Part shown: one piece after another, positions 3,421 through 61,615 of the stretch
How the letters are laid out: each line of letters starts with the position of its first letter
Position numbering within the stretch: position 1 is the stretch's first letter
NCBI GenBank assembly: GCA_964435565.1
Contig: CAYSZR010000001.1
Span: forward strand, 3,288 to 67,287
DNA from: an uncultured Coriobacteriaceae bacterium
GTDB taxonomy: Bacteria > Actinomycetota > Coriobacteriia > Coriobacteriales > QAMH01
Length of the DNA: 64,000 nucleotides
Direction of reading: 5' to 3'
Position numbers and translations under genes: made by a program
Notes under the pieces: model-generated
What the model was told of the DNA's origin: nothing
Seen by the model: the letters and a program-made list of their open reading frames with translations, nothing else
Databases searched by the model: none

Positions 3421-4998
3421 ATGACGCGCAAAATCGCTATATTCGACACCACGTTACGCGACGGAGAGCAGTCACCGGGCGCGAGCATGAATGCGCAGGA
3501 AAAAATCGTCATCACACGCCAACTTCTGCGTTTGGGCGTTGATGTGGTAGAAGCCGGGTTTCCTGTTTCGAGCCCCGGCGAGTTTAAATCCGTCCAAGAT
3601 ATTGCGAAAATCGTAGGAGACAAGTGCATCGTATGTGGGCTTACACGTGCGGTTGAACATGACATAGATGTTTGCGCAGAAGCGCTCGCAGTTGCCAAGC
3701 GCCCCCGTATACATACCGGCATCGGCGTCTCTCCTGAGCATCTTGCGTACAAGTTCAAAGGAATCACCCTTGAAGAGGCCATAGATCGTGGTGTCGCGGC
3801 TGTCAGACATGCGAAAAGATACGTTGAAGACGTTGAATTTTATGCAGAAGACGCGGGACGTGCCGCCTACGAGGATCTTGCGAAGATGATGCAAGCGGTA
3901 ATCAAGGCCGGCGCAACCGTGCTGAATATTCCAGATACGACGGGCTATAGCATGCCGCACGAGTTCGGGAAACGTATCGAGTATCTTATGGAGCATGTGG
4001 ACGGCATAGAGGATGTCTGCGTGTCTGTGCACTGTCATAACGATCTTGGCATGGCGACCGCGCTTTCGCTTGCAGGCGTTCGAGCGGGTGCCACCCAAGT
4101 TGAATGCACTGTTAATGGATTGGGTGAGCGTGCGGGCAACGCCGCGATGGAAGAAGTCGTTATGGCCATCAAGATGCATGGCGGCGAGCTGGATGCCCAT
4201 ACAGATATCAATGCGCAGGAGTTGTCACGTGCCAGCCGTCTTGTCTCGTCGATTTCGGGAATGAGCGTCCAGCCCAACAAGGCCATTGTCGGTGCAAACG
4301 CTTTTGCTCACAGTTCTGGTATCCATCAAGACGGTGTTCTCAAGAATCGTTCAACGTATGAAATCGTCTTTCCCGAAGATGTCGGCGCTGCTGGAAGCCA
4401 GATCGTTCTCACGGCTCGTAGCGGGCATGCAGCGTTGCGAAAGCGTTTCGAAGATCTGGGATATACGGATATCCCAGATCAAAAGTTCGAACAGATACAC
4501 GCTGCGTTCCTCGAACTGGCAGACCAGAAGAGCAATATCTACGACGAGGATCTTCTGTCGCTTATAGATGAGCATGACAGAAATGAAAACGCCATATACA
4601 AGCTCGATGCCGTTCAGATATCTTGCGGTCAGACGCTTGTGCCTACAGCAACCGTGACCATGACGGATGCGCAGGGCAATACGCATACGGTGTGCGAGAT
4701 GGGCGTCGGGCCGATCGATGCCATGTATTCGGCGATCAACAAGGTGGTCAAGGCAGAAAATGACCTCATGGAATACTCGGTGCAAAGCGTTACGCGCGGT
4801 ATCGATGCTCTTGGCGAGGTGACGGTTCGTATTATGGCACCCGATGGGTCCATATTCACGGGCCGCGGAAGCGATAATGATATTACCGTGAGTTCGGGCA
4901 GGGCTTACGTCAATGCGATAAACCGCATGCTCGAGCAACAGGCCGCCGAAACCTTAGCGCCCGCAGACGAAAACGGAGATATTCCGCCCCATATCTAG
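3421..4998 (+). CDS. leuA: 2-isopropylmalate synthase
   Basis: MTRKIAIFDTTLRDGEQSPGASM, HCHNDLGMATA, and a C-terminal LeuA regulatory domain. Start moved from ORF-track 3280 to ATG 3421, which is preceded by AAGGAGA. Confidence 0.92.
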   Translation: MTRKIAIFDTTLRDGEQSPGASMNAQEKIVITRQLLRLGVDVVEAGFPVSSPGEFKSVQDIAKIVGDKCIVCGLTRAVEHDIDVCAEALAVAKRPRIHTGIGVSPEHLAYKFKGITLEEAIDRGVAAVRHAKRYVEDVEFYAEDAGRAAYEDLAKMMQAVIKAGATVLNIPDTTGYSMPHEFGKRIEYLMEHVDGIEDVCVSVHCHNDLGMATALSLAGVRAGATQVECTVNGLGERAGNAAMEEVVMAIKMHGGELDAHTDINAQELSRASRLVSSISGMSVQPNKAIVGANAFAHSSGIHQDGVLKNRSTYEIVFPEDVGAAGSQIVLTARSGHAALRKRFEDLGYTDIPDQKFEQIHAAFLELADQKSNIYDEDLLSLIDEHDRNENAIYKLDAVQISCGQTLVPTATVTMTDAQGNTHTVCEMGVGPIDAMYSAINKVVKAENDLMEYSVQSVTRGIDALGEVTVRIMAPDGSIFTGRGSDNDITVSSGRAYVNAINRMLEQQAAETLAPADENGDIPPHI

Positions 4999-5242
4999 AA
5001 GCGTTGTTTTGGGTATGGGAAGGGGAGTCTCAGGAGCTTGCGCATGAGAGCCCCGGGAAAAGCGAATCTCAAAAAAGCTGCAAAATCCGTTTATAAGTGG
5101 AAAACTCAGAATTTCCCCCGTTGGTCGTTTGGGTCTCTCCACACGGGCTGTTGATTTTGAAAACCCTGCAAATCTATGTCGCATCAAACGGGTATGGTAG
5201 TACAGCAGGGGAGAACTGCTAGATAGGGGATAGACCGTACTT

Positions 5243-17996: not shown

Positions 17997-19349
17997 ATGG
18001 ATATGCAGAGGACGATGAGCATCGTCATGCTCACTATCTGCTACGTCCTGTTCAGCATCTTTGCGGTGCTGGGTGTGGTGTATTACGACACGATATCTCC
18101 AGCTATCTCGCTCTTCGCTATTATCGGCATGTTCGTCTTGACCTTCGTCGCCTTGCGCGTCGCCGGCATATCAGATCATGCGCGAGCGCGGCAGTCCAAC
18201 CAGACGCTGGACCTTGCAAGCAAGACGGTGACATTCATGCGTGAGGGTCTTGATGCCCATTCTGCGCAGGCAGTATGCGATTTGCTATTGCCTGCAGCAT
18301 TGGCAGACGCCGTTGCAATTACCAATCGCGAGAAAATCCTCGGTTTTTCCGGTCTCGACAAGGGCAACCATAATTTAAATTCCGCTATTCAGACGGAGAG
18401 TACGCGTGAAACGCTCGAAGACGGCATTACGCGCATTATGGAATCGTCCAAAGAAGTCGGCTTCTCAAAGGATTCTGGCAAACTCAGGGCTGGAATCGTT
18501 GTAGCACTTGTCGTCAATAAGCGGATCGTGGGGACTATTAAGTTTTATTATCGTTCCCCACGTAAGCTTGGAGAAAATCAAAAAGCGATTGCAGAGGGAT
18601 TTGCCCAATTGCTTTCAACGCAGCTTTCGCTTTCGTATCTGCAACAGCAGACAGAACTTGCGGCACGCATGGAATTAAAGGCCCTGCAGGCACAGATCAA
18701 TCCTCACTTTCTCTTCAATACGATCAATACCATTGCCGCGATCACGCGCACCGATCCAGTAAAGGCGCGTACCATGCTTCGCGAATTTGCCATCTACTAT
18801 CGCCGCCTGCTTGAGAATTCCGAGGACCTGATTCCGCTTTCAAAAGAAATCGAGCAGACCGAGCGCTACCTGATGTTTCAGAAAGCTCGGTTTGGCGAGG
18901 ATGCGATTCGCCTGCATATCGATATGGAGCCAGGTCTTGATCAGTTGCAAGTCCCGTCTTTTGTGCTGCAACCCATCGTGGAAAATGCGGTTGGACATGG
19001 AAGAAGGGATGATGGAAGCGCCCTGTACATCAATGTCAAGGTAATTCGAGCTGCCGATAGCGTCATAATCTCGATTGCGGATGACGGTGTCGGTATTTCG
19101 CCCGACAAACTCGAAAATCTTGTTGAAGGTGGCTCGAAGACGGGCATGGGTATTGCGCTGAAGAATGTAAACGCAAGGCTCAAGGCATATTTTGGTGCTA
19201 TTTCCGGACTGTATGTCGATTCGAAGCTGGGAGAAGGCACCACTGTGTACCTGAGCCTTTACGATGCCCTGCTTGAACAAGGTGTTTCGGTTGAGAACGA
19301 AGAACTACTCTATGGTGGAAGCTGTGATGATTTGGCATTATCTGAATAA
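17997..19349 (+). CDS. Sensor histidine kinase, LytS/YehU (His_kinase) family
   Basis: Two N-terminal TM helices, a GAF-like middle region, the H-box QINPHFLFNTINTI, and HATPase_c (GMGIALKNV, GEGTTV). Confidence 0.8.
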   Translation: MDMQRTMSIVMLTICYVLFSIFAVLGVVYYDTISPAISLFAIIGMFVLTFVALRVAGISDHARARQSNQTLDLASKTVTFMREGLDAHSAQAVCDLLLPAALADAVAITNREKILGFSGLDKGNHNLNSAIQTESTRETLEDGITRIMESSKEVGFSKDSGKLRAGIVVALVVNKRIVGTIKFYYRSPRKLGENQKAIAEGFAQLLSTQLSLSYLQQQTELAARMELKALQAQINPHFLFNTINTIAAITRTDPVKARTMLREFAIYYRRLLENSEDLIPLSKEIEQTERYLMFQKARFGEDAIRLHIDMEPGLDQLQVPSFVLQPIVENAVGHGRRDDGSALYINVKVIRAADSVIISIADDGVGISPDKLENLVEGGSKTGMGIALKNVNARLKAYFGAISGLYVDSKLGEGTTVYLSLYDALLEQGVSVENEELLYGGSCDDLALSE

Positions 19350-19434
19350 TTGCCAGATGCGAAACTCAATGTTCACTCTACGTTTTGGTGTTTGATGATA
19401 GAATCTGGACGTTGTAGCAAGAAGGAGACAGTCT

Positions 19435-20148
19435 ATGCTCAAGGCGATTATTGTTGATGATGAGGCACCCGCGCGTTCCGAGCTGCGGTTTCTTCTCGAT
19501 GAAACAGGAGAAGTCGAAGTAGCGGCCGAAGCGGCAAATGTCCGCGAGGCTATAGAGAAGCTCAAAGACGTTGGTGCAGACATCATGTTTCTTGATGTGA
19601 ATATGCCGGGTGTCGATGGACTGCAGCTTGCAGAAGCGCTGACCAAGCTCAAGTACCCGCCTTTTGTCATATTCGTTACTGCATACAGCGAGCACGCTGT
19701 TAAGGCGTTCGAGGTCAATGCGACAGACTATCTGGTGAAGCCTGTTGAGACAGACCGCCTGATGATTGCTGTCAATAAGGTTAAACAGCTTATTTCAGCA
19801 CAAGGCCGATCGACGACCAACGAGCGTATTCCTGTTGAAAAGGGCGGCAAAAAGCTGCTCATACCTGCTAGCAAGATTCATTTTGTGATGGCAAAAGACG
19901 ATTATTCCTATTTACATACAGAAAATGATCGTTATTTGTCTACGGTATCGCTTGCCCAGCTTGAAGCCAAGCTCGAGCCACTTGGGTTTTTCCGCGTACA
20001 CCGTCGTTATCTTGTGAACCTATCATGCGTAAGCGAGGTCGATTCAGTCAGCGGCGGAACGCTCTTGCTGACGCTTAATGGGGAAGACGAGCAGATCCCT
20101 GTTTCCCGAAGGCGTGTATCGTCTCTTAAAAAAGCCCTGGGTCTTTAA
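19435..20148 (+). CDS. LytTR-family response regulator
   Basis: Receiver domain (IVDDE...DIMFLDVNMPGVDG...TAY) plus a LytTR DNA-binding domain (FFRVHRRYLVNL). Confidence 0.88.
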   Translation: MLKAIIVDDEAPARSELRFLLDETGEVEVAAEAANVREAIEKLKDVGADIMFLDVNMPGVDGLQLAEALTKLKYPPFVIFVTAYSEHAVKAFEVNATDYLVKPVETDRLMIAVNKVKQLISAQGRSTTNERIPVEKGGKKLLIPASKIHFVMAKDDYSYLHTENDRYLSTVSLAQLEAKLEPLGFFRVHRRYLVNLSCVSEVDSVSGGTLLLTLNGEDEQIPVSRRRVSSLKKALGL

Positions 20149-26149: not shown

Positions 26150-26881
26150 ATGCTTGACGCGGTGGCGCTTGCCGTTGATCTTGCGCTTTTTATTGTGACC
26201 GTGGTTGTTGTGGGTCAAAAGCCCACTGTGGCCAAAGTGGTAGCAATGATATGCCTCGTCGCGGTAGTCGATTATGGATATTTGGCGCTTGTCGCAATGC
26301 AAGCGCAGGAAAATCCTATCGAGTGGTATCAACAGCTGCTTGGAGAGACCATGAAAGCGTATAACGGCGCTTTCTCCAATCAGTCCGCTGACTACGATTC
26401 TGTGATCGCTGTTGTCGCTGGCATCTCGCCGGCACTTTATGTGGTGCAATCGTCCGTATATGTTTTCATTGGACTGTGCATACGCTGGGTCATAGATCGT
26501 GTTCGTAGTAAGAGCGAGTGGTCGCCGTTTTCTCAAGTCGATCTTTCGGTTTGGTGGCTTATGCCTCTTTTGTTCGGTATTTGCTGCTATACCGCATCGC
26601 TTTTTCTGCAAAATGACGCGGCGCGAATCGTGTGGCTTGTTGCTATGAACGTGCTTGTGGTATCTGTCGTTGTGCTGTTTGCCCAAGGCGCAGCGGCTGG
26701 CAAGGGCATCATGAACCGAATGGGCTTGAGCATGACGTGGCAGATTGTCTTAGGCGTGCTCGGGATTATCTCGTGGATGTTGTTCCTTGTCGTGCCTTTC
26801 ATGGGGCTCGTTGATTTTTGGGCGAATTTTCGCAAGATTGCGCGTGACGACTCTAAGTCGTCTAGCGCAGGCGCGAATTAG
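26150..26881 (+). CDS. DUF2232/YybS-like polytopic membrane protein
   Basis: About 6-7 TM helices. It occupies the position between rpsR and rplI where yybS sits in Firmicutes. Confidence 0.55.
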   Translation: MLDAVALAVDLALFIVTVVVVGQKPTVAKVVAMICLVAVVDYGYLALVAMQAQENPIEWYQQLLGETMKAYNGAFSNQSADYDSVIAVVAGISPALYVVQSSVYVFIGLCIRWVIDRVRSKSEWSPFSQVDLSVWWLMPLLFGICCYTASLFLQNDAARIVWLVAMNVLVVSVVVLFAQGAAAGKGIMNRMGLSMTWQIVLGVLGIISWMLFLVVPFMGLVDFWANFRKIARDDSKSSSAGAN

Positions 26882-27578: not shown

Positions 27579-28247
27579 GTGAAAATCGGATTACACGACG
27601 TCGATGCTATCATTTTCGACTTCGATGGCACGCTTGCGGACTCAATGTGGGTTTGGGATAACGTTGACAGGATGTTTCTGGCAAAACGAGGCATCCCTTT
27701 TGCCAAAGAATATGGTGAGAAGATAGCCGTATTGGGCTTCGAGTTGGGCGCACAGTACTCTATAGAGCGTTTCGGTCTTGATGAGGACCCCGAAGACATC
27801 ATTGCGGAATGGAAATCCGGTGCTGAAGACGGCTACGCGACACAGGTCGCGTTGAAGCCTGGAGCGCGCGAATATCTAAGCTACTGCAAGTCACAAGGAA
27901 CCCCTCTGGCTATTGCGACTTCTTTGCAGCGACATCTTCTGGAGCCTGCGCTGAAAAATAACGGGGTACTGGGTATGTTTGACGCAATATGTATCTGCGA
28001 TGAATTGCAATGCGGCGGCAAATCGAACCCTACGATCTATAGAGAGGCGGCTCGCAGATTGGGCGTCCCGGCTCAACGATGTGCAATCTTTGAGGATGTG
28101 GTTATTCCAGCAGAGTCGGCCAAGCAGACGGGTGCATATGTAATCGGCGTCTATGACGAGCACAAGCAACAGGCCACTGATAAGCTTAAAGGAGTGGTCG
28201 ACCGCTTTATCATGGATTTTTCCGAGCTTCTAGATGAGGTTAGATGA
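27579..28247 (+). CDS. HAD-superfamily hydrolase (beta-phosphoglucomutase-like subfamily)
   Basis: Motif I IIFDFDGTLADS, a cap domain, and the motif III/IV region (K....IFEDV). GTG start after AGGAG. Confidence 0.8.
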   Translation: MKIGLHDVDAIIFDFDGTLADSMWVWDNVDRMFLAKRGIPFAKEYGEKIAVLGFELGAQYSIERFGLDEDPEDIIAEWKSGAEDGYATQVALKPGAREYLSYCKSQGTPLAIATSLQRHLLEPALKNNGVLGMFDAICICDELQCGGKSNPTIYREAARRLGVPAQRCAIFEDVVIPAESAKQTGAYVIGVYDEHKQQATDKLKGVVDRFIMDFSELLDEVR

Positions 28248-28486
28248 AGCAGTGGGTCTATATCGCACGGTGCAGTGACGATAGCCTGTATACGGGGATG
28301 GCTTCTGATGTTGATCGTCGTATCGGTGAACATAATGCCGGGACTGGTGCAAAATATACGCGAAGTCGACGCCCTGTAGAGGCTGTATATCGTGAAGAAT
28401 GCCTCGACAAATCTACCGCGCTTAAGCGAGAGGCGGCCATCAAGCGGATGACGCGTGCTCAAAAGCTTGAGCTTATAGACGAATGA
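28244..28486 (+). CDS. GIY-YIG domain protein (UPF0213/YhbQ-like)
   Basis: WVYIARCSDDSLYTGMASDVDRRIGEHNAG.GAKYTRSRRPV. There is a 4-nt ATGA overlap with the HAD gene. Confidence 0.8.
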   Translation: MKQWVYIARCSDDSLYTGMASDVDRRIGEHNAGTGAKYTRSRRPVEAVYREECLDKSTALKREAAIKRMTRAQKLELIDE

Positions 28487-28504
28487 TCTTTGGCGAGGGA
28501 GCTT

Positions 28505-28645
28505 AAGACAAAAAGGGGCCTCGGCGGAAAAAGGGGAGGGAGAAACCGCCGAGGCACGTATGTTCGGGTTGGCGGCTGATGTGGGTGGGATAGCAGGGAA
28601 GGGGAGGGAGGCCCCTAGATTTGCGTACCGCCGAACCTGATAGTT
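28505..28645 (-). ncRNA. Candidate small RNA with C-rich hairpin loops (6C-like), 5' end uncertain
   Basis: On the minus strand, the terminal hairpin GCCUCGGCGG-UUUCUCCCUCCCCUUUUU-CCGCCGAGGC is followed by CCCCUUUUUGUCUU, which forms an intrinsic terminator. An upstream helix GUUCGGCGG...CCGCCAACCCGAAC encloses AGGGGCCUCCCUCCCCUUCCCUG. A TATAGT -10-like hexamer sits at 28648-28653. The 66-aa ORF here looks non-coding. Confidence 0.4.
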
Positions 28646-28776
28646 GCACTATAGAGGGAGAACCTGAAGGAACCCTGAACTGTTTGACTGCTTTCAGACT
28701 CACTTAAGATTTGAAGCCGGGCTTACGAGTAAGTAGAATGCATATAGCTGGGATTATAAATAAAGGAAGTGCAGTA

Positions 28777-29802
28777 ATGGTTTGTCCAGATTGCGGTAAC
28801 GATAACGAAGACGGCAGTCCGTTTTGCTCTTCTTGTGGCAAGGATCTTCAAGACGGCAATAGTGCGGGAACTGCAGCGGATCAAACAGAGCACGAAGCGC
28901 AGCAGGAAACTACACAACAGCCTCGTAAAACGGCGGGAAAGCACGGCGCCCACAGCATCGAAAAACCGGGCGATGGCAAGGCGACTGCATCGTTTATTTG
29001 TGGAATAGCCGCCATCGTTTTGTCTCCCACTATAGTTCTTGGCATCATCTTGGGCTGCGCTGCTTTCATCTTGGGGGGCCTTGCGGTAAAAGACGGGCCG
29101 AATAGGATGGCGCGCCGGGGTGCCATCTGCAGCGTTGTCGGTGTGGCGTTATCTGTAGCCATACTTGTTGTGAGTCTTGTGTTTGGCGTGTGGGTGTTTG
29201 GCGGAGCTGCCAGTAATCCTGATGAGGTTAGCAGTTCGTCAAACACATCTTCGACCTCTGGAGGGTCGTCGGTTTCATCGACATCGGTTTATTCCAGCAC
29301 GGCCTCGAGCGGTTCTTCGCAGCAGTCGTCTGCTGGCGGTACGTCGACTTCCTCTGCTGCATCCAGTGCAAGTTCGAATGCGGTACAACTCAATAATTCG
29401 TATATGAACGATCGTTTTGGTTTTTCAGTGGGTATTCCAGACGGATTTGTACAAGGCACAGAATCTCAGAATGGCGATGATGTAACGTTCACCGACACCG
29501 CTTTGAATATGACTGTGCGCGTATATGGGTATAACAATACCGACAACCTCAGTGAAGACGCGGTTATGAAGACAGTTTGGAATGGGTCGACAGATTCGAT
29601 AAAACAGACCGGCGATGGTCACGTCTTTATTTATCAATATGACAGCTCAAAAGAATACTTCTACTGGATCTATCTTGGAGCAGGCTCTATCAATCGGATG
29701 GAGATATCCTACCCTCTGCAGGATGATAATGGCGACGAAATGGCGATGGCGGAAGCCTTCATGGGAAGCTTCGTACCAGGCGATCTGACTAAAACGCATT
29801 AA
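28777..29802 (+). CDS. Zinc-ribbon / DUF4190-like membrane protein with Ser-rich linker and unknown extracytoplasmic domain
   Basis: MVCPDCGNDNEDGSPFCSSCG zinc ribbon and three to four TM helices. A long S/T/A low-complexity linker follows, then a roughly 140-aa C-terminal domain. Start at ATG 28777 after AAGGAAG. Confidence 0.6.
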   Translation: MVCPDCGNDNEDGSPFCSSCGKDLQDGNSAGTAADQTEHEAQQETTQQPRKTAGKHGAHSIEKPGDGKATASFICGIAAIVLSPTIVLGIILGCAAFILGGLAVKDGPNRMARRGAICSVVGVALSVAILVVSLVFGVWVFGGAASNPDEVSSSSNTSSTSGGSSVSSTSVYSSTASSGSSQQSSAGGTSTSSAASSASSNAVQLNNSYMNDRFGFSVGIPDGFVQGTESQNGDDVTFTDTALNMTVRVYGYNNTDNLSEDAVMKTVWNGSTDSIKQTGDGHVFIYQYDSSKEYFYWIYLGAGSINRMEISYPLQDDNGDEMAMAEAFMGSFVPGDLTKTH

Positions 29803-30057
29803 GCTTTACGTGTCTTCGGTATATAAAATGGAGAGGCCCCAACGGAGATAAAACCGTCAGGGCGCATTGGCTTTGGATTCGCCAGTTTAAATCAGGAGGG
29901 ATGCAAGGAGGGGATGCCTTGCAGTGCATACCGTCGAACCCGATAGCCAAACTATATGTGGCCTGCCTGAAGTAATTCTGAAGAGGGCTTTCCTTTTTCA
30001 GTTTTACTTCAGGCCGTCATTTGCAACGTGTTTAGGCTTGTGTGCAGAATCGCGAAT

Positions 30058-30684
30058 TTATGAACGAACGACGCTCACGCGCTCGCCGATATGGTCGCCA
30101 GATTCCGCGAGGTCGACCATCGCTATTGCATAATCGGCGTATGAGATCACCGGGCCTTCAGAGCCAACCATGAGCTCTTCTCCTCCAAGCTGATAACTGC
30201 CGGTCCTTTCTCCGTCAGCCTGAAAATCTGCTGCAGGTGAAAGATAAGTCCACTTTACATCCGTACGCTTGCGTAAATCGTCTAAGGCTGTTTGCATAGC
30301 AGCCGCAAGCGGTTGAAATGCGTCGGGAAAATCGGGTGTTTGGTTGAGCGTCATCGTGTGCTCTGGATTAACGAAGAGGCTCCCTGCGCCGCCGACAATC
30401 AAAAGTCGTGTATCGGTATTGCTCAAGATGTTGCACAGATGTTCCAGACTTGAAGAATGCTTGGGAAGGTCTTCGGGTGCCCAGGCGCCGAAGGCATCTA
30501 ATACCGCATCAAAGCCGGCCAGGTCTTCTGCGGTAAGCTCGAACAGGTCTTTAACGATTGCCGTTTGCGAAGCGCTCTTATTCTCGGAACGTACGATAGC
30601 CGTGACTTCGTGTCCTCGCCTGACCGCCTCTTCGGCGATGAGCCTGCCTTCTTTGCCGTTTGCTGCCACAAGTGCGATTTTCAT
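30058..30684 (-). CDS. NAD(P)H-binding (NmrA/atypical SDR-like) protein
   Basis: MKIALVAANGKEGRLIAEEAVRRGHEVTAIVR Rossmann motif. About 208 aa, typical of this family. Confidence 0.78.
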   Translation of the reverse strand: MKIALVAANGKEGRLIAEEAVRRGHEVTAIVRSENKSASQTAIVKDLFELTAEDLAGFDAVLDAFGAWAPEDLPKHSSSLEHLCNILSNTDTRLLIVGGAGSLFVNPEHTMTLNQTPDFPDAFQPLAAAMQTALDDLRKRTDVKWTYLSPAADFQADGERTGSYQLGGEELMVGSEGPVISYADYAIAMVDLAESGDHIGERVSVVRS

Positions 30685-35998: not shown

Positions 35999-36580
35999 CT
36001 ATTTGTTGAATACGAGTTCTATAGCACGCATGTTCAGGGCATGGTAGCTGGGCTTCACGCGTTCGCGAACAGCGGTTTCAATCTCTTCGCGCGTCATGCC
36101 CAGTGCACCGCTTTTGACCGCAGCGGCAAGCAGGACGATGTTGAGTACTTTCGCCGAATCCACTTGCGCGCAAATTTCCGCCCCGTCCACTTCGATGATA
36201 TGGGCATTTGGAAGCTCCCTCAGGTATGCGAGCGCTTCTTTGCCGTCGTATTCGATGCCTTGCAGTGCGGCTGTAGGGGGTTGCGAGGGCTGTGTGTTGA
36301 CGATTACGGTCCCTCCAGGGGCGAGAAAGTCAATGCAGCGAACGGCCTCTCCCGGTTCGAATGCGATGATCACGTCGGCATGTCCTTTGGGCACAAGCGG
36401 CGATTGCGGTCTTCCTCCGCGTACGTGACTTGCAACGGATCCACCGCGTTGCGCCATACCGATGGTCTCAGCTGTCTTCACGTGTTCGTTTCTGCTTAGA
36501 AGCACGTGTGCGATAAGGCGCGAGGCAAGGACATTGCCCTGACCGCCAACGCCGCAGATAACACAGTTCAAGCTACTCAT
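35999..36580 (-). CDS. iorB: Indolepyruvate:ferredoxin oxidoreductase subunit beta
   Basis: MSSLNCVICGVGGQGNVLASRLIA is typical of IorB. The ATG at 36580 overlaps the iorA stop (cATGAGTAG). The ORF-track start at 36667 is rejected. Confidence 0.85.
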   Translation of the reverse strand: MSSLNCVICGVGGQGNVLASRLIAHVLLSRNEHVKTAETIGMAQRGGSVASHVRGGRPQSPLVPKGHADVIIAFEPGEAVRCIDFLAPGGTVIVNTQPSQPPTAALQGIEYDGKEALAYLRELPNAHIIEVDGAEICAQVDSAKVLNIVLLAAAVKSGALGMTREEIETAVRERVKPSYHALNMRAIELVFNK

Positions 36581-38507
36581 GATCGCCCCCTCTGTGTAAT
36601 GCACCTGTGGGACAGATCTGGCAACAGAGCTCGCAGCCAAAGCAAAGCGCGGTATCGACCGCAACATGTCCGTCCTCGATTGTTAACGCAGGACATCCGA
36701 TCTGATTGATACATGCACGACAATCAGTGCAGGTATCAAGATTGATGCGTACTGGCGGGTTCACAGGAGGCGCAACATAGATGCAGGGCGACTTGAAGAT
36801 GATGGCGCGGACGCCTGTCTTTGCAACAGCGTCCTTGACAGCTGTTTTCGTAGCCTCGAGATCGAGAGGGTCAACGGTGACGCAATCTACATCAAGCGCT
36901 TCGAGAATGCGCGGGATGCTCATCGCCGCACCATCGATACCCATCATTGTGCGGCCTGTGCCGGGATGTGGCTGATGCCCTGTCATGGCCGTTGTCGAAT
37001 TATCGAGGATGCAGATTATAATGTCGTGTTTGTTGTAAACAGCGTTGATGACACCGGTAATGCCGCTTGCAAAGAATGTCGAATCACCGATGAAGCTGAA
37101 TGCAAGGGTATCCGGTTCGATGGTTTGGATACCCTGCGCGACGGTTATGTCGGCACCCATGCACAGACAGGTGTCGACCATGTCGAGCGGCGCTGCATTG
37201 CCAAGCGTATAGCAGCCGATGTCGCCGCAGAATACGGCCTTGCGGTTTCCCACGGCTTTTTTCACGGCGTAGAAACTCGCACGATGCGGGCATCCTGCGC
37301 AGAGCACGGGCGGGCGAGGGGGAAGTTTGGGAGTTGGCTTTGCGGCTTGCATATCTTGGCCTTGCGCGCTTGACGCGTCGGGAAGGAGGCCGAACTGCGC
37401 AAGCGCGTCGCATATTGCCTCGACGCTTTGTTCCCCTGCATAGCTGAAATATCCATCAAGCTTACCGTGAATGGTGTTGGCGCGGCACTCGAAGCCGCAC
37501 TGGAATGTGAGCTCGCGTTCGATATATGGATCGAGTTCCTCTACGCAGATAATCTCATCGACTACATCAAGAAATTCGCCTGCAAGTTTCGCGGGGAAAG
37601 GATAGGGCGTCCCTATTTTCAGTACGGGCAATTCGAGGCCCCACATCTGAAGCGCTTCCATCACATAGTGGTATGAGACACCACCGCAGGCTATTCCAAG
37701 CGGGAAACGCAGATCGTCTTGGCTGTTCAAGGCAAGATTCTGATCTTGATGGGGAGTGCCGCTGATCTCGATACGATTGGGGCGATAGCCGCTCGAAAGG
37801 TCTTCGGCGATCTGCGCGGCTCTGCGTTCGACTTTGCCGTGGTTCAGGAAACTCGTGCGGGGAAAGACGACCCAGCGTTGCGTGTCTTTGATAAAACCTG
37901 TTGGTGTGTGATGGTCCCAGGCTGTATCGTCGTCAGAGCGCTGCGCGTTTTTGTAATCTGCCCCGCAATCTGCAATTCCGCCACGTGTTTTGATCGTGCC
38001 GCAAGCATGACTTACGCGTGTGGTGGGACGAACGAACACAGGCGTCTGATATTTTTCAGAAAGTTCGAAGGCATCCTGAATCATGGCATATGCTTCGCCC
38101 GGGCTTGCTGGGTCTAAGACGGGTACTTTGGCAAACTGGGCGAAAGTGCGCGTGTCTTGTTCGGTTTGGCTGGAAATGGGGCCTGGGTCGTCTGCCACGA
38201 CGATGACAAGGCCGCCTTCGACGCCGATATAGGAAAGAGTCATAAGGGGGTCACTGGCGACGTTTAGGCCTACTTGTTTCATCGTGACCATTGCTCGGGC
38301 GCCTGCATACGCTGCTCCGGCAGCAGCTTCAAGCGCCGCTTTTTCGTTTGTGGACCATTCGACGTGGATATTTCCGTCATTGTTCTTCGCGACTGTTTCA
38401 AGAATCTCGGTTGAGGGCGTGCCTGGATAGCCGCTTACGAAATTGACGCCTGCGTGAATAGCGCCCAATCCGATCGCCTCGTTGCCCATCAATAGCTTGA
38501 CTGGCAT
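36573..38507 (-). CDS. iorA: Indolepyruvate:ferredoxin oxidoreductase subunit alpha
   Basis: N-terminal KLLMGNEAIGLGAIHAGV..SGYPGTPS, a TPP-binding region (GDSTFF..G), and C-terminal 2x[4Fe-4S] motifs CTDCRACINQIGC / CFGCELCCQICP. Start at ATG 38507 after GGAGAG. Confidence 0.9.
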   Translation of the reverse strand: MPVKLLMGNEAIGLGAIHAGVNFVSGYPGTPSTEILETVAKNNDGNIHVEWSTNEKAALEAAAGAAYAGARAMVTMKQVGLNVASDPLMTLSYIGVEGGLVIVVADDPGPISSQTEQDTRTFAQFAKVPVLDPASPGEAYAMIQDAFELSEKYQTPVFVRPTTRVSHACGTIKTRGGIADCGADYKNAQRSDDDTAWDHHTPTGFIKDTQRWVVFPRTSFLNHGKVERRAAQIAEDLSSGYRPNRIEISGTPHQDQNLALNSQDDLRFPLGIACGGVSYHYVMEALQMWGLELPVLKIGTPYPFPAKLAGEFLDVVDEIICVEELDPYIERELTFQCGFECRANTIHGKLDGYFSYAGEQSVEAICDALAQFGLLPDASSAQGQDMQAAKPTPKLPPRPPVLCAGCPHRASFYAVKKAVGNRKAVFCGDIGCYTLGNAAPLDMVDTCLCMGADITVAQGIQTIEPDTLAFSFIGDSTFFASGITGVINAVYNKHDIIICILDNSTTAMTGHQPHPGTGRTMMGIDGAAMSIPRILEALDVDCVTVDPLDLEATKTAVKDAVAKTGVRAIIFKSPCIYVAPPVNPPVRINLDTCTDCRACINQIGCPALTIEDGHVAVDTALCFGCELCCQICPTGALHRGGDHE

Positions 38508-51030: not shown

Positions 51031-52396
51031 CTAACTGTTTCGAGGCGAAGCGAGCATTACCGATGCGCGAAATACGCCTTCGTCGCATTCGAAACGGGCT
51101 ATTCCGCCATGTTTTTCTGCAATAGCGCGCACTGATTCGGTGCCGATGCCGACTGCATCTCGCTTGCTCGACATGATCGATCCATCGTCGAGAAATATCG
51201 GATTATCCAAGCACGTGTTGTCGATGGTAATCACAAAAGGCAGAAACGAACTATATGTTGTGCGCATTCGCAACTTCAGCTGCTTTGGATCTGCGCCTGA
51301 TTTGATCGAACGACTTAGCTCGTCAAGAGCGTTTTCCATGAGATTGCCAAACAGCGCTGTCAAATCGGCACTTGGGTAGGAAATATTCGCGGGGACATTT
51401 ATGCGGATATCGGGGTTGATACCGATTTGCCTGGCAAGGTCACAGTAATAGAGCACGACTATATTTACAGCAGTATTTTCGCAGTACACGAGCGCTTCTG
51501 TATCGGGTGCTTCCTCGAGAAGCTTTCCTGCGTATTCTCTAAATCCTTCTAAATCATCTCTTTTTGCAAAATCGTTGAGGACTTGGATGAACTGTCGATT
51601 GTCATGATTGGCTCGACGGGCGGCTGCGATGTGGTCGTCAAGGTGCTCTATAAACATCGTTTGAACGGACCTGCGCCGTATTCGTTCGATTTCGACGATG
51701 TTCTTGTCCGCCGAGTACATGAGATTCGCGACTATGACATAGAACAGAACGATAATCACGAATAGCGCGACAAGAATAACCCCGTAAGCCTCGCCTACGC
51801 GCGCGAAGAGCAGCGTTAGGGTTTGCTGCGGTCTGATGTAGAGAAGCGTTACGCAAACGACCGTGGGTGAAATCCACGCGATATTCCAAAACGAGCGTTT
51901 CTCGCTCGATGCTGCGCGGCTTTCAAGCAGATGCGGGAGCAGATGACGCGCTGGCCACTGGAGCAGCAGCACGAATAAGATTGAAAGCCCCCCATTGAAC
52001 TTCCATACCGGGCCAGGCAAGAAAGACGCTGGAAAGCGTATCGCCCACGACTATGGCATCGACGAGGACCGCCCATGATGCGATATATACGCTGACAACG
52101 AAGGCGCTGGCGCAGATGAAGATAGTTCGTGCCCAGTCAAACTTTGCGAAATGTTTGTATGCGATAACGCAGGCTATGGCAACGGGGATGTCGACATGAT
52201 TGCCGGGCAGGCCGATTCTGGCGCACAGGCAACCGAGTAGGACGGATAATGCAACGACGACGCATGCGCCTATGATAATTTGACGTGCAGTCATGCCGCG
52301 CATGTCCATAAGTGGCATGACTGCAAGCAGGTAAGGCACCAGAAAAAGGAGCTGTTCGGAGATAGCGAACAGATATTCGACGGGAAATGGCTGCAC
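51031..52396 (-). pseudogene. GHKL/AgrC-type sensor histidine kinase interrupted by a +1 frameshift in a G6 run
   Basis: The N-terminal polytopic part (52396-51923) and the C-terminal part (52020-51031) lie in frames offset by one. The C-terminal part has a further TM region, H-box-like HDNRQF, N-box FGNLMENALDE and G-box GIGTESV. Removing one G from the run at 51988-51993 gives ...EVQWGLSILFVLLL... in one frame. The span is 1366 nt, which is 3n+1. Confidence 0.6.
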
Positions 52397-52397
52397 G

Positions 52398-53111
52398 CTA
52401 GCTGTTCCTTGCCTGGGCAAAGACGTGATCGAGCCAGGCTTTGCGAATAGTTGGGAGACTATCTCTGCTGATAGGCACCCTGTCTCCGTTTATAAGCACG
52501 AGATTGTATCCATCGATTTCGGATACCAAGTCGAGATTTGCCAAATAGCCACGCGCGGATGCGACAAAATTCCCATGCATGCAAAGAGCCTCTTGTGCAC
52601 TGCGAAGGGTTCCGCGAACACGTCGCGACCCCTGTTTGGCGTGCAACTCGATATAGTGTCCGTCGGCGCGACACCAGATGATATCTCGAATAGGTATGTC
52701 AAGTTCAACGCCTGCAATGCGCACAAGCGGCGCAGGCAAGGAAACACCATCAAGAGCTGACATAAGCTGCTCTGCGGAAAAAGGCTTTACTAGATACGCA
52801 ACCGCCTGAACCGAGTACCCCTCAACAGCGAAGTCCGAGCTGGTGGTTGTAAAAATCACGGGCGTGCTGTCTCCAGCATCACGTATATGCCGGGCAAGAT
52901 CCATGCCTGTCGTAGCATTTTCGTCTTTGGAGAGAATGCAGTCGAGTAGCACGAGCGAGAATTGATTGGGGGACCACGCCTCAAGAAAAGCGCCTGCTGA
53001 GGAAAAGCCCTGAACAGTGCCGACAAGATGACGGGAATCAAGCCAGTCAGCTGCAACCCCAGCGGTTTGCGCGCATATCTTCGGATCGTCTTCTACAACA
53101 GCGATACGCAC
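52398..53111 (-). CDS. LytTR-family response regulator
   Basis: Receiver domain (MRIAVVEDD...LVLLDCIL...TTTS...K) plus a LytTR domain (YIELH...RGTLRSAQE). Its stop lies 1 nt before the GTG start of the kinase. Confidence 0.85.
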   Translation of the reverse strand: MRIAVVEDDPKICAQTAGVAADWLDSRHLVGTVQGFSSAGAFLEAWSPNQFSLVLLDCILSKDENATTGMDLARHIRDAGDSTPVIFTTTSSDFAVEGYSVQAVAYLVKPFSAEQLMSALDGVSLPAPLVRIAGVELDIPIRDIIWCRADGHYIELHAKQGSRRVRGTLRSAQEALCMHGNFVASARGYLANLDLVSEIDGYNLVLINGDRVPISRDSLPTIRKAWLDHVFAQARNS

Positions 53112-54396: not shown

Positions 54397-55308
54397 CTAA
54401 GAGTGTGTATATAAAAGCCCTTCGCGAATGCTCGTATCGGCTACTGCTATAGCTTGTATATTAAAAAAGCGGGCGAGTTCTTGGATGATAAGTTCTCCAG
54501 GTACGATTGTGTGGATGCGATCGGGGCACGTCTTGAGAATAAGATCTCTGCTTGCTTTTTTGTCACTGCAGACATAGTCGACTATTGAATCAATTTCACT
54601 TTGAGCGAAATACGACCTGTCGTCACACGTTCTTTTTCTTAGAAGCTTGCCCATCGCGCGTGCAGAGCCGCCTATGCAGTACATTGTTTTTGTCTCGGGC
54701 CAGTTCGCGGCCGCGCTGCGTTCGATTTCATTTCTTACGTGCTCTTGAATCCGTTTACGTTCTTTCGACGTGGGCAATATGCCGCTTACGTGCCGTTTAA
54801 AAAGTCCGAGGGAACCAATACTCAGGCTCAATGCGTCTAAAGCAAAATCACGTTCGAACAAAACAATCTCGGTTGAGCCACCGCCTATATCCGCGACTAT
54901 CCCGCAATCTGACGAAATGATATTTTTAATTCCTTCATATGCAAGCAACGCTTCCTCCTGTTTCGAGAGAAGTGAAATCGGAAGATTTGTTGCTTGCCGA
55001 AGTTGCGCCAACGCATTTGCACTGTTGTGAATATCGCGAAGCGATGCTGTGGCAAATATGCGTTCTTCTTTTATGCCAAGACGGACGCTGATAGCGTGCA
55101 AATTTGTGAGCGCCCAGATTGCAACATCGATTCCCTCATCTGACATGATGCCGTTTTCAATATAGGCGGCAAGTCCCGCCATGATTTTTTTTGAAAGAAG
55201 CGGCGAGGTACGCGTATGACCGTTTCTGTCGGCGGTTTTGCTCTGGTCATATATGCTGAGTCGTATGCTGTTGCTCCCTATATCGATAATCGATATTAGA
55301 TCGTCCAT
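54397..55308 (-). CDS. ppx: Ppx/GppA-family phosphatase (short form)
   Basis: IIDIGSNSIRLSIY, DIGGGSTE and ASKHA-fold motifs. It is the last gene of the pst-phoU operon. Confidence 0.8.
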   Translation of the reverse strand: MDDLISIIDIGSNSIRLSIYDQSKTADRNGHTRTSPLLSKKIMAGLAAYIENGIMSDEGIDVAIWALTNLHAISVRLGIKEERIFATASLRDIHNSANALAQLRQATNLPISLLSKQEEALLAYEGIKNIISSDCGIVADIGGGSTEIVLFERDFALDALSLSIGSLGLFKRHVSGILPTSKERKRIQEHVRNEIERSAAANWPETKTMYCIGGSARAMGKLLRKRTCDDRSYFAQSEIDSIVDYVCSDKKASRDLILKTCPDRIHTIVPGELIIQELARFFNIQAIAVADTSIREGLLYTHS

Positions 55309-55319
55309 GTTGGCCTCGT

Positions 55320-55970
55320 TTATTTCATGGTCTTGTCGCTAACAAGATATTCGGTCCATGAAGAAAGGCTTTCGGCGTGGTCTCCTATCCGTTCAAGGTA
55401 TTTCGCGATCATAAGAAGATCAACGCCATTTTCTGCATCTATTTCGCGATTGAATATCCTGGCGATCGTTTCTTCGCGTAAATCGACCAAGAACGCGTCG
55501 AGCTCATCGTCTTCGGATGCTGCCGTCCGGGCCTTTTCAACGTCATGTTCCAAGTACGATTCAATAGCGGTGATGACCATGTGCTTTGTCGCTTGAGACA
55601 TTGTCGCAAGCTTTTCATCGCGTGCGTCGCAGAAGCTCTCGCCCATAAGATCTGCCACACGGCACACCTCAAGCGACAGTTCCCCGATGCGTCTAAAATC
55701 AGTCACGGACTTAAGGGCGCCTGAAACATCGCGCAGGTCGCTTGCCACCGGTTGCTGGCACAAGAGGATTCGCAGACACTGCGTCTCAATGTTGCGCTCG
55801 TGTTGGCTCAAGTCAGATTCGTATGTGCGAAACGGCCAAGTCGAATCAATCGTTCCGCGGGTAACGATATCGCACGCATGCGTCATGCACATCCGCGCAA
55901 TATGCGCTATGCCGTGCATTTCATTGGTAAGGTCATTTAATTGCTTTTCAAATGCGGGGCGTGGGCTCAT
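55320..55970 (-). CDS. phoU: Phosphate signalling complex protein PhoU
   Basis: Two PhoU repeats. The C-terminal motif is AKYLERIGDHAESL. Confidence 0.88.
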   Translation of the reverse strand: MSPRPAFEKQLNDLTNEMHGIAHIARMCMTHACDIVTRGTIDSTWPFRTYESDLSQHERNIETQCLRILLCQQPVASDLRDVSGALKSVTDFRRIGELSLEVCRVADLMGESFCDARDEKLATMSQATKHMVITAIESYLEHDVEKARTAASEDDELDAFLVDLREETIARIFNREIDAENGVDLLMIAKYLERIGDHAESLSSWTEYLVSDKTMK

Positions 55971-56737
55971 CAGCCAAACCTCCCAGTCAGATAGTCTTCA
56001 GTACGTCGGTCGCGTGGGCGGGAAAAAACCTGTTCGGTTCGATCCCATTCGATGCAATCGCCCAGTAGAAAATAGGCGGTATTTTTCGAAATGCGTGCAG
56101 CTTGCTCGATGTTGTGAGTGACGACGATGACACAAACGCCTTCACCGGAAATCTGAGCAATCGTGTTCTCTATTGCAAAGCTTGCAATAGGGTCGAGAGC
56201 GGAGCATGGTTCATCCATAAGAATTACGCGTGGTGTCATTGCAAGCGTGCGAGCAATGCAGAGTCTTTGCTGCTGGCCACCGGAAAGCGCCAGCGCATTT
56301 GTGTGTAGTTTGTCTTTCACTTCGTCCCAGAGTGCGGCTCGCTGTAGGGAGCCCTCGACGGCTTCGTCGATTTTGCCCTTGTCTTTTATCCCATGCCGGC
56401 GCAGCGCGAAGGCGATGTTTTCGTAGATGGACTTACGGAATGGGTTGGGTTTTTGAAAAACCATACCGATATGCCGGCGCAGCTCATAGATGTTTTCATT
56501 TTTTGTATTAATGTTATGTCCGTCGAAATGAACTTCCCCATCGATATGGCAGCGCGGTATTTCGCGGTTCATCAGGTTCAGGCAGCGTAGAAATGTTGAC
56601 TTCCCACAGCCCGATGGCCCAATGAGCGCTGTTATCTCCCCGACGTGAAATGCAAGATTTGTTTTTCTTAATGCGCCGCATGTGTCGTTATAGCGAACGC
56701 CCAAGTCTTTGGTGTATAGCAGCGCAGTGTCGTTCAT
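55970..56737 (-). CDS. pstB: Phosphate ABC transporter ATP-binding protein
   Basis: GPSGCGKSTFLRCLN, LSGGQQQRLCIAR, LMDEPCSALDP, and the C-terminal EDYLTGRFG typical of PstB. Confidence 0.93.
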   Translation of the reverse strand: MNDTALLYTKDLGVRYNDTCGALRKTNLAFHVGEITALIGPSGCGKSTFLRCLNLMNREIPRCHIDGEVHFDGHNINTKNENIYELRRHIGMVFQKPNPFRKSIYENIAFALRRHGIKDKGKIDEAVEGSLQRAALWDEVKDKLHTNALALSGGQQQRLCIARTLAMTPRVILMDEPCSALDPIASFAIENTIAQISGEGVCVIVVTHNIEQAARISKNTAYFLLGDCIEWDRTEQVFSRPRDRRTEDYLTGRFG

Positions 56738-57648
56738 TCTGCCACCAGTTTCTTTCCGAGTTTTCTTCCAAGGACGCGCGCTGTAAGGTTAAATATCAAA
56801 ACGCATATCATCAGAACTGCAGCTGAGCCATTTGAGACAGCGTCAAGATCGGGTACAACACCTTCAGAATTTATCTTCCATATATGTACGGCAAGGGTTT
56901 CGGCAGGTCGCCAGATATTAAGTGGGCAGCTTGGATTTGTTAGATCGAGGCAGGTGAAGTCGAGCAAGGGCGCTGACTGGCCTGCCGTATATATGAGCGC
57001 CGCCGCTTCGCCGAAGACTCTTCCTGCGGACAGGATGACGCCCGTGACTATGGCAGGCATAGCGCAGGGCAGCAGAATGTGGACGGTCGTTTCCCAGCGG
57101 GTGAGTCCGAGCGCGAGTGCCGCGTCGCGTTGCGTTTGCGGAACGGATTCAAGCGCCTGTTGTATCACGCGCACGAGAAGAGGGATATTGAATATAGTGA
57201 GCGTGAGCGATCCCGAAAGTATCGAGAACCCCCACCCGAAATAGATTACGAAGAGAAGGAATCCGAAAAGCCCAACGACGATGGATGGAAGAGAGCTCAG
57301 GACCTCGATAATGGTCTTTATTGCATGCGTCAGGGTGTTTTCTGGCGCGTATTCTGTCAGAAAGATTGCGGCTCCAAGTGACAGAGGCAGTGAAATGACA
57401 AGTGTGAGTACGAGCATGTAAAAGGAATTGAAGAGCTCGGGGCCGATGCCGCCGCCTTCCTTGAACTGTTCGGGCTTTCCTGTTAAAAACGCTGGATCGA
57501 AGGCTTTAGCGGCACCGCTTATGATGATATAGGCGATGATGGAGACCAATAATATAAAGATAACCACGACGGCTGCCGTCAGTGCAGCTGTTGCTAGATG
57601 GTCACGTCGACGCGCAACAATAACCTGTTCAGCGATATTCTTAGACAT
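56734..57648 (-). CDS. pstA: Phosphate ABC transporter permease PstA
   Basis: Six TM helices and the EAA-type loop ALGLTRWETTVHILLP. ATG start after GGAGG. Confidence 0.9.
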   Translation of the reverse strand: MSKNIAEQVIVARRRDHLATAALTAAVVVIFILLVSIIAYIIISGAAKAFDPAFLTGKPEQFKEGGGIGPELFNSFYMLVLTLVISLPLSLGAAIFLTEYAPENTLTHAIKTIIEVLSSLPSIVVGLFGFLLFVIYFGWGFSILSGSLTLTIFNIPLLVRVIQQALESVPQTQRDAALALGLTRWETTVHILLPCAMPAIVTGVILSAGRVFGEAAALIYTAGQSAPLLDFTCLDLTNPSCPLNIWRPAETLAVHIWKINSEGVVPDLDAVSNGSAAVLMICVLIFNLTARVLGRKLGKKLVAE

Positions 57649-58496
57649 GCTTCACCTCCGTGTTGGTTTTCATCGGCGCCCAGCACTTTCACCGCTTCGT
57701 TACCCATGCTCATGGTGAGGATTGAGGTGAGTGTCGAGGCTGCCTGAGTGAGTGAAGAGGGAATGATTGGCGCGTTGCCGATGACCATCTGCACTGCAAG
57801 GGCTTCGCCGAATGCACGAGCCATGCCCAAGATGATTCCCGTGAGGATGCCTGGGGTTGCGGCCCTGAGAACGATATGCCATATGTTTTGCCAGCGCGTG
57901 CCTCCGAGCGCAGCCGATGACATGCGATAGGAGGCGGGGATAGCTTCAAGTGCATCGATGATGAGTGATGTGACTGTGGGCAAAATCATTATTGCGAGGA
58001 CGAGGGATCCCGCGAGTATGCCGTACCCGGTCGAATCAGACCACGATCTGATCCAAGGAACGAGTAGAGTGAGTCCCGCTAAGCCAAAGACAACTGAAGG
58101 GATGCCTACAAGAAGTTCGAGAGTCGGGCGAAAGAAACGTTTTCCGAATTTCGGATTGATTTCTACAGTAAAAATAGCAGAGCTGATGGCAAGTGGTACC
58201 ACGAATAGGCATGACAGAATCGTGATGGAAAACGAACCGAAGATCATCGGCAATGACCCCATGGCGGGAGCGCCGTTAGCATCCGTCATATGGGGATTCC
58301 AGGTATCGCTTGTGAGAAACGCAACTGGATCGATGCCGTCAACCATGAAGGTTGCGAGGCCCCTTTGCGCGACCATCATCACGAGGGCGATGACGATGGT
58401 AATGACAATCGCCACGCAAGCCCCCGTGATGCCTTTGCCGATGTGTTCAAGCTTGCTCTTTGCAAGATGATTGGCGCTAGATTCATTCATGGTCAT
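57594..58496 (-). CDS. pstC: Phosphate ABC transporter permease PstC (apparently lacking the last TM helix)
   Basis: ELLVGIPSVVFGL, ALGGTRWQNIWHIVL, MARAFGEALAVQMVIGN. After MSMGNEA the sequence is hydrophilic, and the ORF runs 55 nt into pstA. Confidence 0.8.
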   Translation of the reverse strand: MTMNESSANHLAKSKLEHIGKGITGACVAIVITIVIALVMMVAQRGLATFMVDGIDPVAFLTSDTWNPHMTDANGAPAMGSLPMIFGSFSITILSCLFVVPLAISSAIFTVEINPKFGKRFFRPTLELLVGIPSVVFGLAGLTLLVPWIRSWSDSTGYGILAGSLVLAIMILPTVTSLIIDALEAIPASYRMSSAALGGTRWQNIWHIVLRAATPGILTGIILGMARAFGEALAVQMVIGNAPIIPSSLTQAASTLTSILTMSMGNEAVKVLGADENQHGGEACLRISLNRLLLRVDVTI

Positions 58497-58499
58497 GTT

Positions 58500-59435: not shown

Positions 59436-59494
59436 TTTTTCTCCCTGAATTAGTTCCCTATTTTTTATATACAGGCCATACCGAATATGCTGGT

Positions 59495-60268: not shown

Positions 60269-60329
60269 GTGCTCTCCTTATTCGATCTGTCATTTGAGGC
60301 AAATCGTAGGAGTGCGAGGAGGACGAGTG

Positions 60330-60385
60330 GTTACATCGATGAAAACTCATGTGTCATCAATGTGAAAAGAAAATACCCGATAGAG
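60330..60385. promoter_or_regulatory. Pho-box-like array (hexamers in 11-bp phase) in the pstB2/pit divergent region
   Basis: The minus strand reads TTCACA-n5-GACACA-n5-TTTCAT-n5-TAACCA. The plus strand contains TGTCATCAATGTGAAAA, which resembles TGTTAACTAATTGTGAAA upstream of the phoB-like gene. Confidence 0.3.
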
Positions 60386-61592: not shown

Positions 61593-61615
61593 TACGCGAA
61601 AATATGACCGAGGTT

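Follow-up and report, generated by a model that had tools for sequence, protein, structure and literature searches.

A probable family of C-rich small RNAs with a four-site operator in a Coriobacteriales-like lineage

What lies in the 290-nt gap (28487-28776) between the end of a GIY-YIG gene (28244-28486, plus strand) and the start of a Zn-ribbon membrane-protein gene (28777-29802, plus strand, with the start taken from public assemblies) in an uncultured Coriobacteriaceae bacterium? The gap belongs to a stretch of 64,000 nucleotides (contig CAYSZR010000001.1, positions 3,288 to 67,287), referred to here as the window, and an earlier note made from its letters had placed in the gap a stand-alone small RNA (sRNA) gene, transcribed from the minus strand and resembling the actinobacterial 6C family. 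In this study, the element in the gap is called sRNA A, and a diverged paralogue past the Zn-ribbon gene is called sRNA B. The two are probably, though by no means certainly, independently transcribed RNA genes of an undescribed Coriobacteriales-like family, which would silence mRNAs by anti-Shine-Dalgarno (anti-SD) pairing. The stand-alone minus-strand gene gains support from conservation, paralogy, compensatory changes, and a frameshifted open reading frame (ORF), and the kinship with 6C does not hold.

Conservation was examined in the sister species (loci L023 and L024), which has the same synteny and an L9 protein 89% identical to that of the window. In a global alignment with L023 from the HAD gene to the Zn-ribbon gene, a block of 137 nt (28518-28654) is 96.4% identical, the HAD gene 77%, the GIY-YIG gene 75%, and the Zn-ribbon gene 64%; identity is 48% in the 31 nt 3' of the block and 63% in the 122 nt 5' of it. 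Judged from this alignment, the block is a sharply bounded island of purifying selection, which extends from the TATAGT box to the last base of the terminator stem. Eight contigs with an identical GIY-YIG protein also share an identical spacer and are uninformative on conservation. A 66-amino-acid ORF (28503-28703) overlaps sRNA A, but a 1-nt indel in L023 shifts its frame; therefore, the conserved island is non-coding. A six-frame pseudo-protein search for mis-called ORFs over the homologues gave no match; the earlier note had called the composition of this ORF implausible.

The second copy, sRNA B (29823..29950, minus strand; predicted transcript about 29944..29823), was found by nhmmer with the A element as a weaker second match on the same strand, in the spacer that separates the Zn-ribbon gene from NAD_binding_10, 1.3 kb from A. 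The two form direct repeats at a distance of 1303 bp. The identity of B is 48% (about 50%) to A and 66% to its orthologue in L023, which occupies the equivalent place. The A and B sequences of the window and of L023 can be aligned end to end, and a covariance model built on these four, R1, gives its own seed sequences 126-135 bits (130.8 for A and 126.3 for B of the window). R1 also matches L154 (3782..3631, 74 bits) and L157 (3473..3327, 83 bits), bringing the family to six copies in four species with scores of 74-135 bits; elsewhere in the window and across about 140 kb of related loci it found no further copy. Both added copies, those of L154 and L157, are of the A type, with 64-72% identity to A, a level similar to that of the HAD and rplI genes between the same genomes (68-81%).

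Since none of the genes adjoining the sRNA in L154 and L157 is related to the Zn-ribbon protein, and the sRNA of L157 is retained without a GIY-YIG gene, the RNA gene is tied to the variable region 3' of rplI-HAD and not to one particular neighbour. A link to the Zn-ribbon gene was rejected on the same grounds. Every copy is convergent with its downstream gene and is never followed by a gene on the same strand, so that it is never a leader, and only on the minus strand is there conservation of the -10 box, the operator, and the U-tails. Relatives with an L9 80-87% identical to that of the window (L025-L031, L155, and L158) have other genes 3' of rplI-HAD and no sRNA there. In the slot after the HAD or the GIY-YIG gene, where relatives lack sRNA A at that position, there is an ORF of 66-67 amino acids (MPLNIYANQ...) with no Pfam match (L025 7630-7830, L029 2104-2304, L154 1948-2151, and L155 4505-4705, plus strand), which is similar in the two copies read (L025 and L154).

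The element of sRNA A covers 28505..28647 on the minus strand and is 96% identical to L023. Its transcription is predicted from sequence, and with the start site and the 3' end estimated in the same way, the transcribed part would be about 28641..28505, or about 135 nt. The 161-nt stretch that includes it folds with a minimum free energy (MFE) of -44.5 kcal/mol (z = -3.43), and none of 200 dinucleotide shuffles was equally stable; z-scores among the copies folded are -3.1 to -3.4 (-3.40 for B). In the MFE fold, helix P1 (28567..28637, minus strand) pairs GGUUCGGCGGU (28637..28627) with GCCGCC-AACC (28576..28567) and encloses both hairpin P2 and a single-stranded tract. P2 (28593..28624, minus strand), formed by GCA...UGC and GGGG/CCCC, exposes CCUCCCUCCCC, whose C/U tract has a mean unpaired probability of 0.65. 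The single-stranded C-rich tract that follows, UAUCCCACCCACAUCA (28577..28592, minus strand), is unpaired with a probability of about 0.9-1.0, and its AUCCCNCC-like motif is found again in five of the six family members. The terminator hairpin P3 (28518..28555, minus strand) has a 10-bp GC stem made of GCCUCGGCGG (28555..28546) and CCGCCGAGGC (28527..28518), and an 18-nt loop, UUUCUCCCUCCCCUUUUU (28545..28528), with an unpaired probability of 0.9. It is followed by the U-rich tail CCCUUUUUGUCUU (28505..28517, minus strand); a U-rich tail is present in all six homologues on this strand only, and the hairpins read on the plus strand have none. P3 was missed by the consensus terminator scanner because the scanner accepts loops of 3-8 nt only.

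The gap, the minus-strand intrinsic terminator, its 10-bp GC stem, and its 18-nt loop are thus where the earlier note had read them. The U-rich tail is present as well, with one C fewer than the note had spelled. The second helix of that note, GUUCGGCGG...CCGCC-AACC-CGAAC (or GGUUCGGCGG ... CCGCC-AACC-CGAAC), can be found at 28637..28562, but the register that agrees best with the relatives and with the MFE fold differs slightly, with GGUU/AACC plus GGCGGU/GCCGCC.

sRNA B, on the minus strand, shares with A the operator, the -10 box, the 5' segment, and the terminator. Its hairpin P2, UGCAAGG-CAUCCCCU-CCUUGCA, is at 29902..29923, and its terminator hairpin, GCCCUGACGG/CCGUUGGGGC (29835..29862), is followed by a tail ending in ...CAUUUUAUAU.

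When the six sequences are combined into one consensus, the conserved 5' segment GGUUCGRCGG forms the long-range helix P1, with 93% of cells paired; its changes are one-sided in some cases and two-sided in one. P2 is an inner hairpin (GCA..AGG / CCU..UGC) with a CCUCCCC-type sequence in its loop, and P3 is a 10-bp terminator paired in 100% of cells in all six sequences. Three pairs of P3 have two-sided, compensatory changes (UC/GA to CU/AG, and G-C to A-U). Overall, canonical pairs fill 95% of cells, compared with 36-54% once the 3' partners have been shifted along the alignment by 1-3 columns, and the observed covariation score was reached by one of 500 column shuffles. The retention of the hairpins in relatives and their covariance, which the earlier note had left to be checked, come out in its favour as far as six sequences can tell, with the terminator helix paired in six of six and compensatory changes at three of its pairs. 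Partition-function folding of all six RNAs also bears out its reading of unpaired C-rich tracts: mean unpaired probabilities are 0.6-1.0 for the C/U-rich tracts, of which each RNA has three, namely the P2 loop, the single-stranded stretch that joins P2 to the 3' strand of P1, and the terminator loop. The 5' segment AUCRGGUUCGRCGGUAYGCA is not C-rich and is strictly conserved.

The promoters are conserved together with the RNAs. The -10 box is TATAGT in both sRNA A (28653..28648, minus strand) and sRNA B (29951..29956, minus strand); TATA-T is invariant in the six family promoters, with TATAGT in five and TATACT in L157. The earlier note had seen the box of A (28648-28653) without a good -35 element, because conserved TTCAG direct repeats occupy that position. 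In sRNA A, the proximal operator arm, TTCAG-N5-CTTCAGG (28663..28679, minus strand), lies at the -35 position, 9-10 nt 5' of the -10 box, and the distal arm, CTTAAG-N5-CTGAA (28693..28709, minus strand), is inverted relative to it. The operator of sRNA B (29966..30013, minus strand) has its proximal arm at 29982..29966 and its inverted distal arm at 30013..29997. The arrangement common to all six copies is CTKAAR-N5-CTKAA - N13/14 - TTCAG-N5-YTTCAG - N10 - TATAST, or, by cores, CTKAA-N6-CTKAA-N13/14-TTCAG-N6-TTCAG-N10-TATAST. The four pentamers are invariant in six of six while the spacers vary freely, and the two distal repeats mirror the two proximal ones in inverted orientation. The pattern TTCAG-N4-7-TTCAGG-N8-12-TATAGT occurs twice in the window, both times at the sRNA genes, and no occurrence is expected from shuffled sequences.

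The proximal repeats at the -35 position are phased by 11 bp, and such repeats in the place of a -35 element are the geometry of OmpR/PhoB-type activator-dependent promoters. Because the cores alone are conserved and the complementarity of the arms is not, the operator looks like a protein-binding site for a putative activator, and activator-dependent transcription of the sRNAs is suggested. An RNA hairpin or terminator was also considered for the operator and was rejected, since the pentamer cores are kept but the arms complement each other only in window copy B, whose operator forms an inverted repeat (I1) with 23-nt arms that are 83% complementary. Two LytTR-type two-component systems are encoded in the window (17997-20148, plus strand, and 51031-53111, minus strand). 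Their regulators were considered as drivers of the sRNAs, but the usual repeat phasing of LytTR regulators is about 21 bp, and the phasing here does not fit.

How could such RNAs act? The most plausible mode of action, by analogy, is pairing of the C-rich tracts in the manner of an anti-SD sequence. In the proposed mechanism, an activator bound at the four-site operator, with the proximal pair in place of the -35 element, would switch on transcription of the sRNA. The 5' segment would then form P1 round the C-rich-loop hairpin and the single-stranded C-rich tract, and the GC-rich terminator, with a large C-rich loop in five of the six members, would end the RNA. The exposed CCUCCC-type tracts would mimic the anti-SD sequence, pair with GGAGG-type ribosome-binding sites (RBSs), and block translation. 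Among the candidate targets in the window, the mRNA of a PhoB-like response regulator is the best one for sRNA B. A similar principle is known from RoxS/RsaE and the UCCC-motif sRNAs of Bacillota, in which multiple C-rich loops or single-stranded regions pair with the SD and transcription is controlled by a response regulator. The present RNAs resemble RoxS/RsaE in having multiple exposed C-rich regions for SD pairing, but belong to another phylum, have no Rfam match, and differ in fold and sequence. The sRNA family is new, and its presumed C-rich anti-SD pairing is an example of a known principle and not a new principle.

Candidate targets were sought by scoring the C-rich tracts against positions -35 to +15 of 60 crude gene starts, and by full-length cofolding with 56 translation-initiation regions. 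The best duplex of the 60 is formed by CAUCCCUCCUGAUUU of sRNA B (29889..29903, minus strand) with AAAUCAGGAGGGAUG (61670-61684, plus strand), with -27.3 kcal/mol and all 15 nt complementary. This candidate seed has 13 of its 15 nt in an unpaired tract, and its core, UCCCUCCU, has an unpaired probability of 0.84. The putative target site lies over the SD of the gene for the PhoB-like response regulator (Response_reg + Trans_reg_C), 5 nt 5' of its ATG (61689). In the cofolding, the free-energy difference (ddG) of B and the regulator is -25.7 kcal/mol, compared with -15.0 for the next best; the translation-initiation regions of the two LytTR regulators rank third and fourth for pairing with B (ddG -15.0 and -14.3), a long way behind the PhoB-like regulator. 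The sequence GGAGGGAT is found in the window at the target site and in the DNA of B itself and at no other place, and of shuffled B sequences, 1% match some part of the window over 15 nt or more (p about 0.01). For sRNA A, no target in the window stands out: the best is the translation-initiation region of purN, with -24.3 kcal/mol against a control minimum of -23.4, and the 10-mer complement GGGGAGGGAG occurs exactly only in the locus of A itself and so yields no target in the window.

Several observations weigh against this explanation. The terminator loop of B in the window has lost the C-rich motif, and the 3' half of B diverges about as fast as neutral spacer (63-66% identity). The structural support is real but thin: the covariation comes from six sequences of four closely related species, P1 and P2 are mostly invariant or changed on one side, and the alignment was fitted to a model whose seed comprises four of the same six sequences. 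As to the target, a second 15-nt match of B, complementary to its P2 region, is found at 36254-36268 (plus strand). It is antisense to a real iorB-like gene, within the minus-strand ORF 35999-36667, immediately 3' of a large ferredoxin-type oxidoreductase ORF; thus it is probably a chance match and cannot be a target. Because this second match looks like chance, the shuffle-based p of about 0.01 is weakened, and its null model may be optimistic. In L023, B keeps complementarity to the SD core only and the extended match with the regulator is absent. C-rich seeds match almost any strong SD, which leaves target specificity uncertain.

Do the RNAs belong to a family that is already known? The 6C RNA (RF01066) is B11/ncRv13660c of Mycobacterium tuberculosis and scr3558 of Streptomyces coelicolor. 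The host here appears to belong to Actinomycetota, several C-rich loops are unpaired, and the mode of action is presumably the same, so that a true but divergent member of 6C might be supposed; yet such membership is highly improbable. With Rfam 15 at the gathering score, the whole window gave three tRNAs only and no 6C or other sRNA family; at E<=0.5, the whole window gave no match to 6C, RsaE, or any other sRNA family, and neither did 28400-28850 and 29780-30060 at E<=10. At the last threshold, the matches on both loci were spurious and sub-threshold (SAM_alpha, sar, and miRNA hairpins on the operator palindrome). RF01066 was thus not matched at any threshold tried, and the 6C likeness put forward in the earlier note falls with it. 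The 6C RNA is defined by conserved six-cytosine runs in stem-loops, and its loops L2 and L3 bind G-rich RBSs without a chaperone (PMC6486639). In the present RNAs, the tracts are mixed C/U (CCUCCCUCCCC) and not C6 runs; the longest C run is four in both window copies, against five in B of L023. In contrast to the two adjacent C-loop hairpins of 6C, the RNA of about 135 nt has P1 enclosing a hairpin and a single-stranded tract, and a C-rich terminator loop. Its most conserved part is the 5' segment, which is not C-rich and is absent from 6C, and it comes in two paralogues with a dedicated four-site operator. A full-text literature search gave no paper on C-rich sRNAs in Coriobacteriia, and literature searches gave no described regulatory RNA in this class.

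The element could also act mainly in cis, as antisense RNA, bidirectional terminator, or insulator for the plus-strand genes on either side. In two species, the Zn-ribbon gene has a copy beyond each of its ends on the opposite strand, the sRNA terminators abut convergent stop codons (19 nt away in the window and 0 nt in L157), and the scanner, with its loops of 3-8 nt, showed no separate plus-strand terminator for the GIY-YIG or the Zn-ribbon gene. A role in cis is nevertheless unlikely, given that the sRNA persists beside unrelated genes in L154 and L157, the latter without GIY-YIG, and that the plus-strand hairpins lack U-tails; moreover, a terminator needs neither conserved internal C-rich tracts nor a dedicated operator. 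Slightly less likely again is a protein-binding or sponge RNA that titrates G-rich RNAs or a protein binding to C-rich RNA. A sponge would fit the three unpaired C-rich tracts of each molecule, and the invariant 5' segment, not being C-rich, may be a protein handle, but the locus shows no co-conserved protein that could be the partner, and the analogues that have been dissected experimentally, 6C and RoxS/RsaE, act by base pairing. As for the absence of any RNA gene, with the signal being due to a plus-strand G-quadruplex, a decayed mobile-element repeat, or a small protein gene, the plus strand of A has at least four G-tracts (GGGTGGGATAGCAGGGAAGGGGAGGG), A and B are direct repeats, and ORFs overlap the region. 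This is as improbable as membership of 6C: the G-tract pattern is lost in B, copies that are about 50% identical keep the helices via compensatory changes, single copies occur in other contexts (L154 and L157), and the ORF is frameshifted between species and without a match in the six-frame search.

If the two elements are anti-SD sRNAs, the design that mimics the anti-SD sequence arose, or diverged beyond recognition, in a further lineage besides those of 6C (Actinomycetes) and RoxS/RsaE (Bacillota), and in this Coriobacteriales-like lineage the seed would be carried even in the terminator loop. For Coriobacteriia, a class common in animal guts, the analysis provides a delimited sRNA family with a covariance-model seed, a four-site operator, and a concrete target hypothesis, the PhoB-like regulator.

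What is this regulator? Among NCBIfam models it matches PhoB best, with 220 bits, which is below the equivalog cut-off, and the adjoining kinase best matches PnpS/PhoR. Because of these matches and of the neighbours pitA, pstB-pstSCAB-phoU, and ppx, the pair is very probably a phosphate two-component system. The phosphate cluster (54397-63673) is complete and consists of ppx/gppA, phoU, pstB, pstA, pstC, pstS, and a second pstB on the minus strand, and of pitA, the PhoB-like response regulator, and the PhoR/PnpS-like kinase on the plus strand. Direct repeats phased by 11 bp are present 5' of the regulator (TTGTTAA-N4-TTGTGAA, 61615-61632) and of pitA (TGTGTCA-N4-TGTGAAA, 60350-60367); lying 5' of the -10-like hexamers TATAGA and GATAGA, they look like PHO boxes. 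The sRNA operator was compared with them, and its reading as a PHO box was not supported, the repeats of the regulator and pitA being TGTGAA-type and more than two mismatches from the CTGAA-type operator. Because of this difference, there is no support for the regulator driving the sRNAs.

A functional analogy can be drawn with OmrA/OmrB of Enterobacteria, two neighbouring paralogous sRNAs that are conserved at their ends and diverge in the middle. An OmpR-family regulator that binds at the -35 region activates them, and they repress the mRNA of that regulator at its translation-initiation region. Here, too, there are two adjacent paralogues, and a circuit of B and the PhoB-like regulator is suggested, with a feedback that is predicted only. 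However, there is no relation in sequence or structure, and the repeats at the Pho genes differ from the sRNA operator. It is conceivable, although doubtful, that the sRNAs form the RNA arm of a two-component circuit, in which an OmpR/PhoB-type regulator on the TTCAG repeats switches the sRNAs on and B shuts off translation of the PhoB-like regulator. If true, this would be a feedback or cross-talk loop in the style of OmrA/B on the Pho regulon in Coriobacteriia.

Wider searches for the family were also carried out. A scan of genome contigs for the GIY-YIG neighbour returned proteins 46-63% identical from unrelated phyla and no orthologous locus. Metagenome contigs scanned for CTCCCTCCCC-N43-73-CTCCCTCCCC gave 120 low-complexity chance loci, none of them homologous by blastn or nhmmer, and viral contigs scanned for the conserved 5' 18-mer gave eight matches, all weak (about 10 bits with the covariance model), of which the two inspected were unrelated sequence. 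A homologue search with the Zn-ribbon protein led to one further, distant locus (L152), whose C-rich element differs and is undetected by R1. This element (4698-4830, minus strand) lies 3' of a Zn-ribbon homologue that is 35% identical, and has a TATACT box, two hairpins with the C-rich loops CCCUCCCUCCCAUCC and CACCAACUCCCUC, and a GC-rich terminator (z = -4.2); it has no Rfam 6C match and only weak sub-threshold matches to unrelated families. Next to it, 4986-5153 (plus strand) has a sub-threshold match to 6S RNA (E = 1.4e-4, and 31.8 bits where the gathering score is 46.4) and is possibly a divergent 6S RNA of Coriobacteriia.

The gene order round the two sRNAs in the window is rpsF-ssb-rpsR-DUF2232-rplI-HAD-GIY-YIG, gap, Zn-ribbon, gap, and NAD_binding_10 on the minus strand. 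The L9 protein has many metagenomic relatives, of which one, 78% identical, is assigned to a Coriobacteriales MAG (class Coriobacteriia, phylum Actinomycetota); from this, the host is probably a Coriobacteriales-like actinobacterium with a GC content of about 52%, that of the window being 48-55%. The DUF2232 membrane-protein gene (26150-26881, plus strand) is placed between rpsR and rplI. In the genome collection, it is Bacillota that have the nearest relatives of the GIY-YIG gene, with about 62% identity, which gives a hint that this gene was acquired horizontally.

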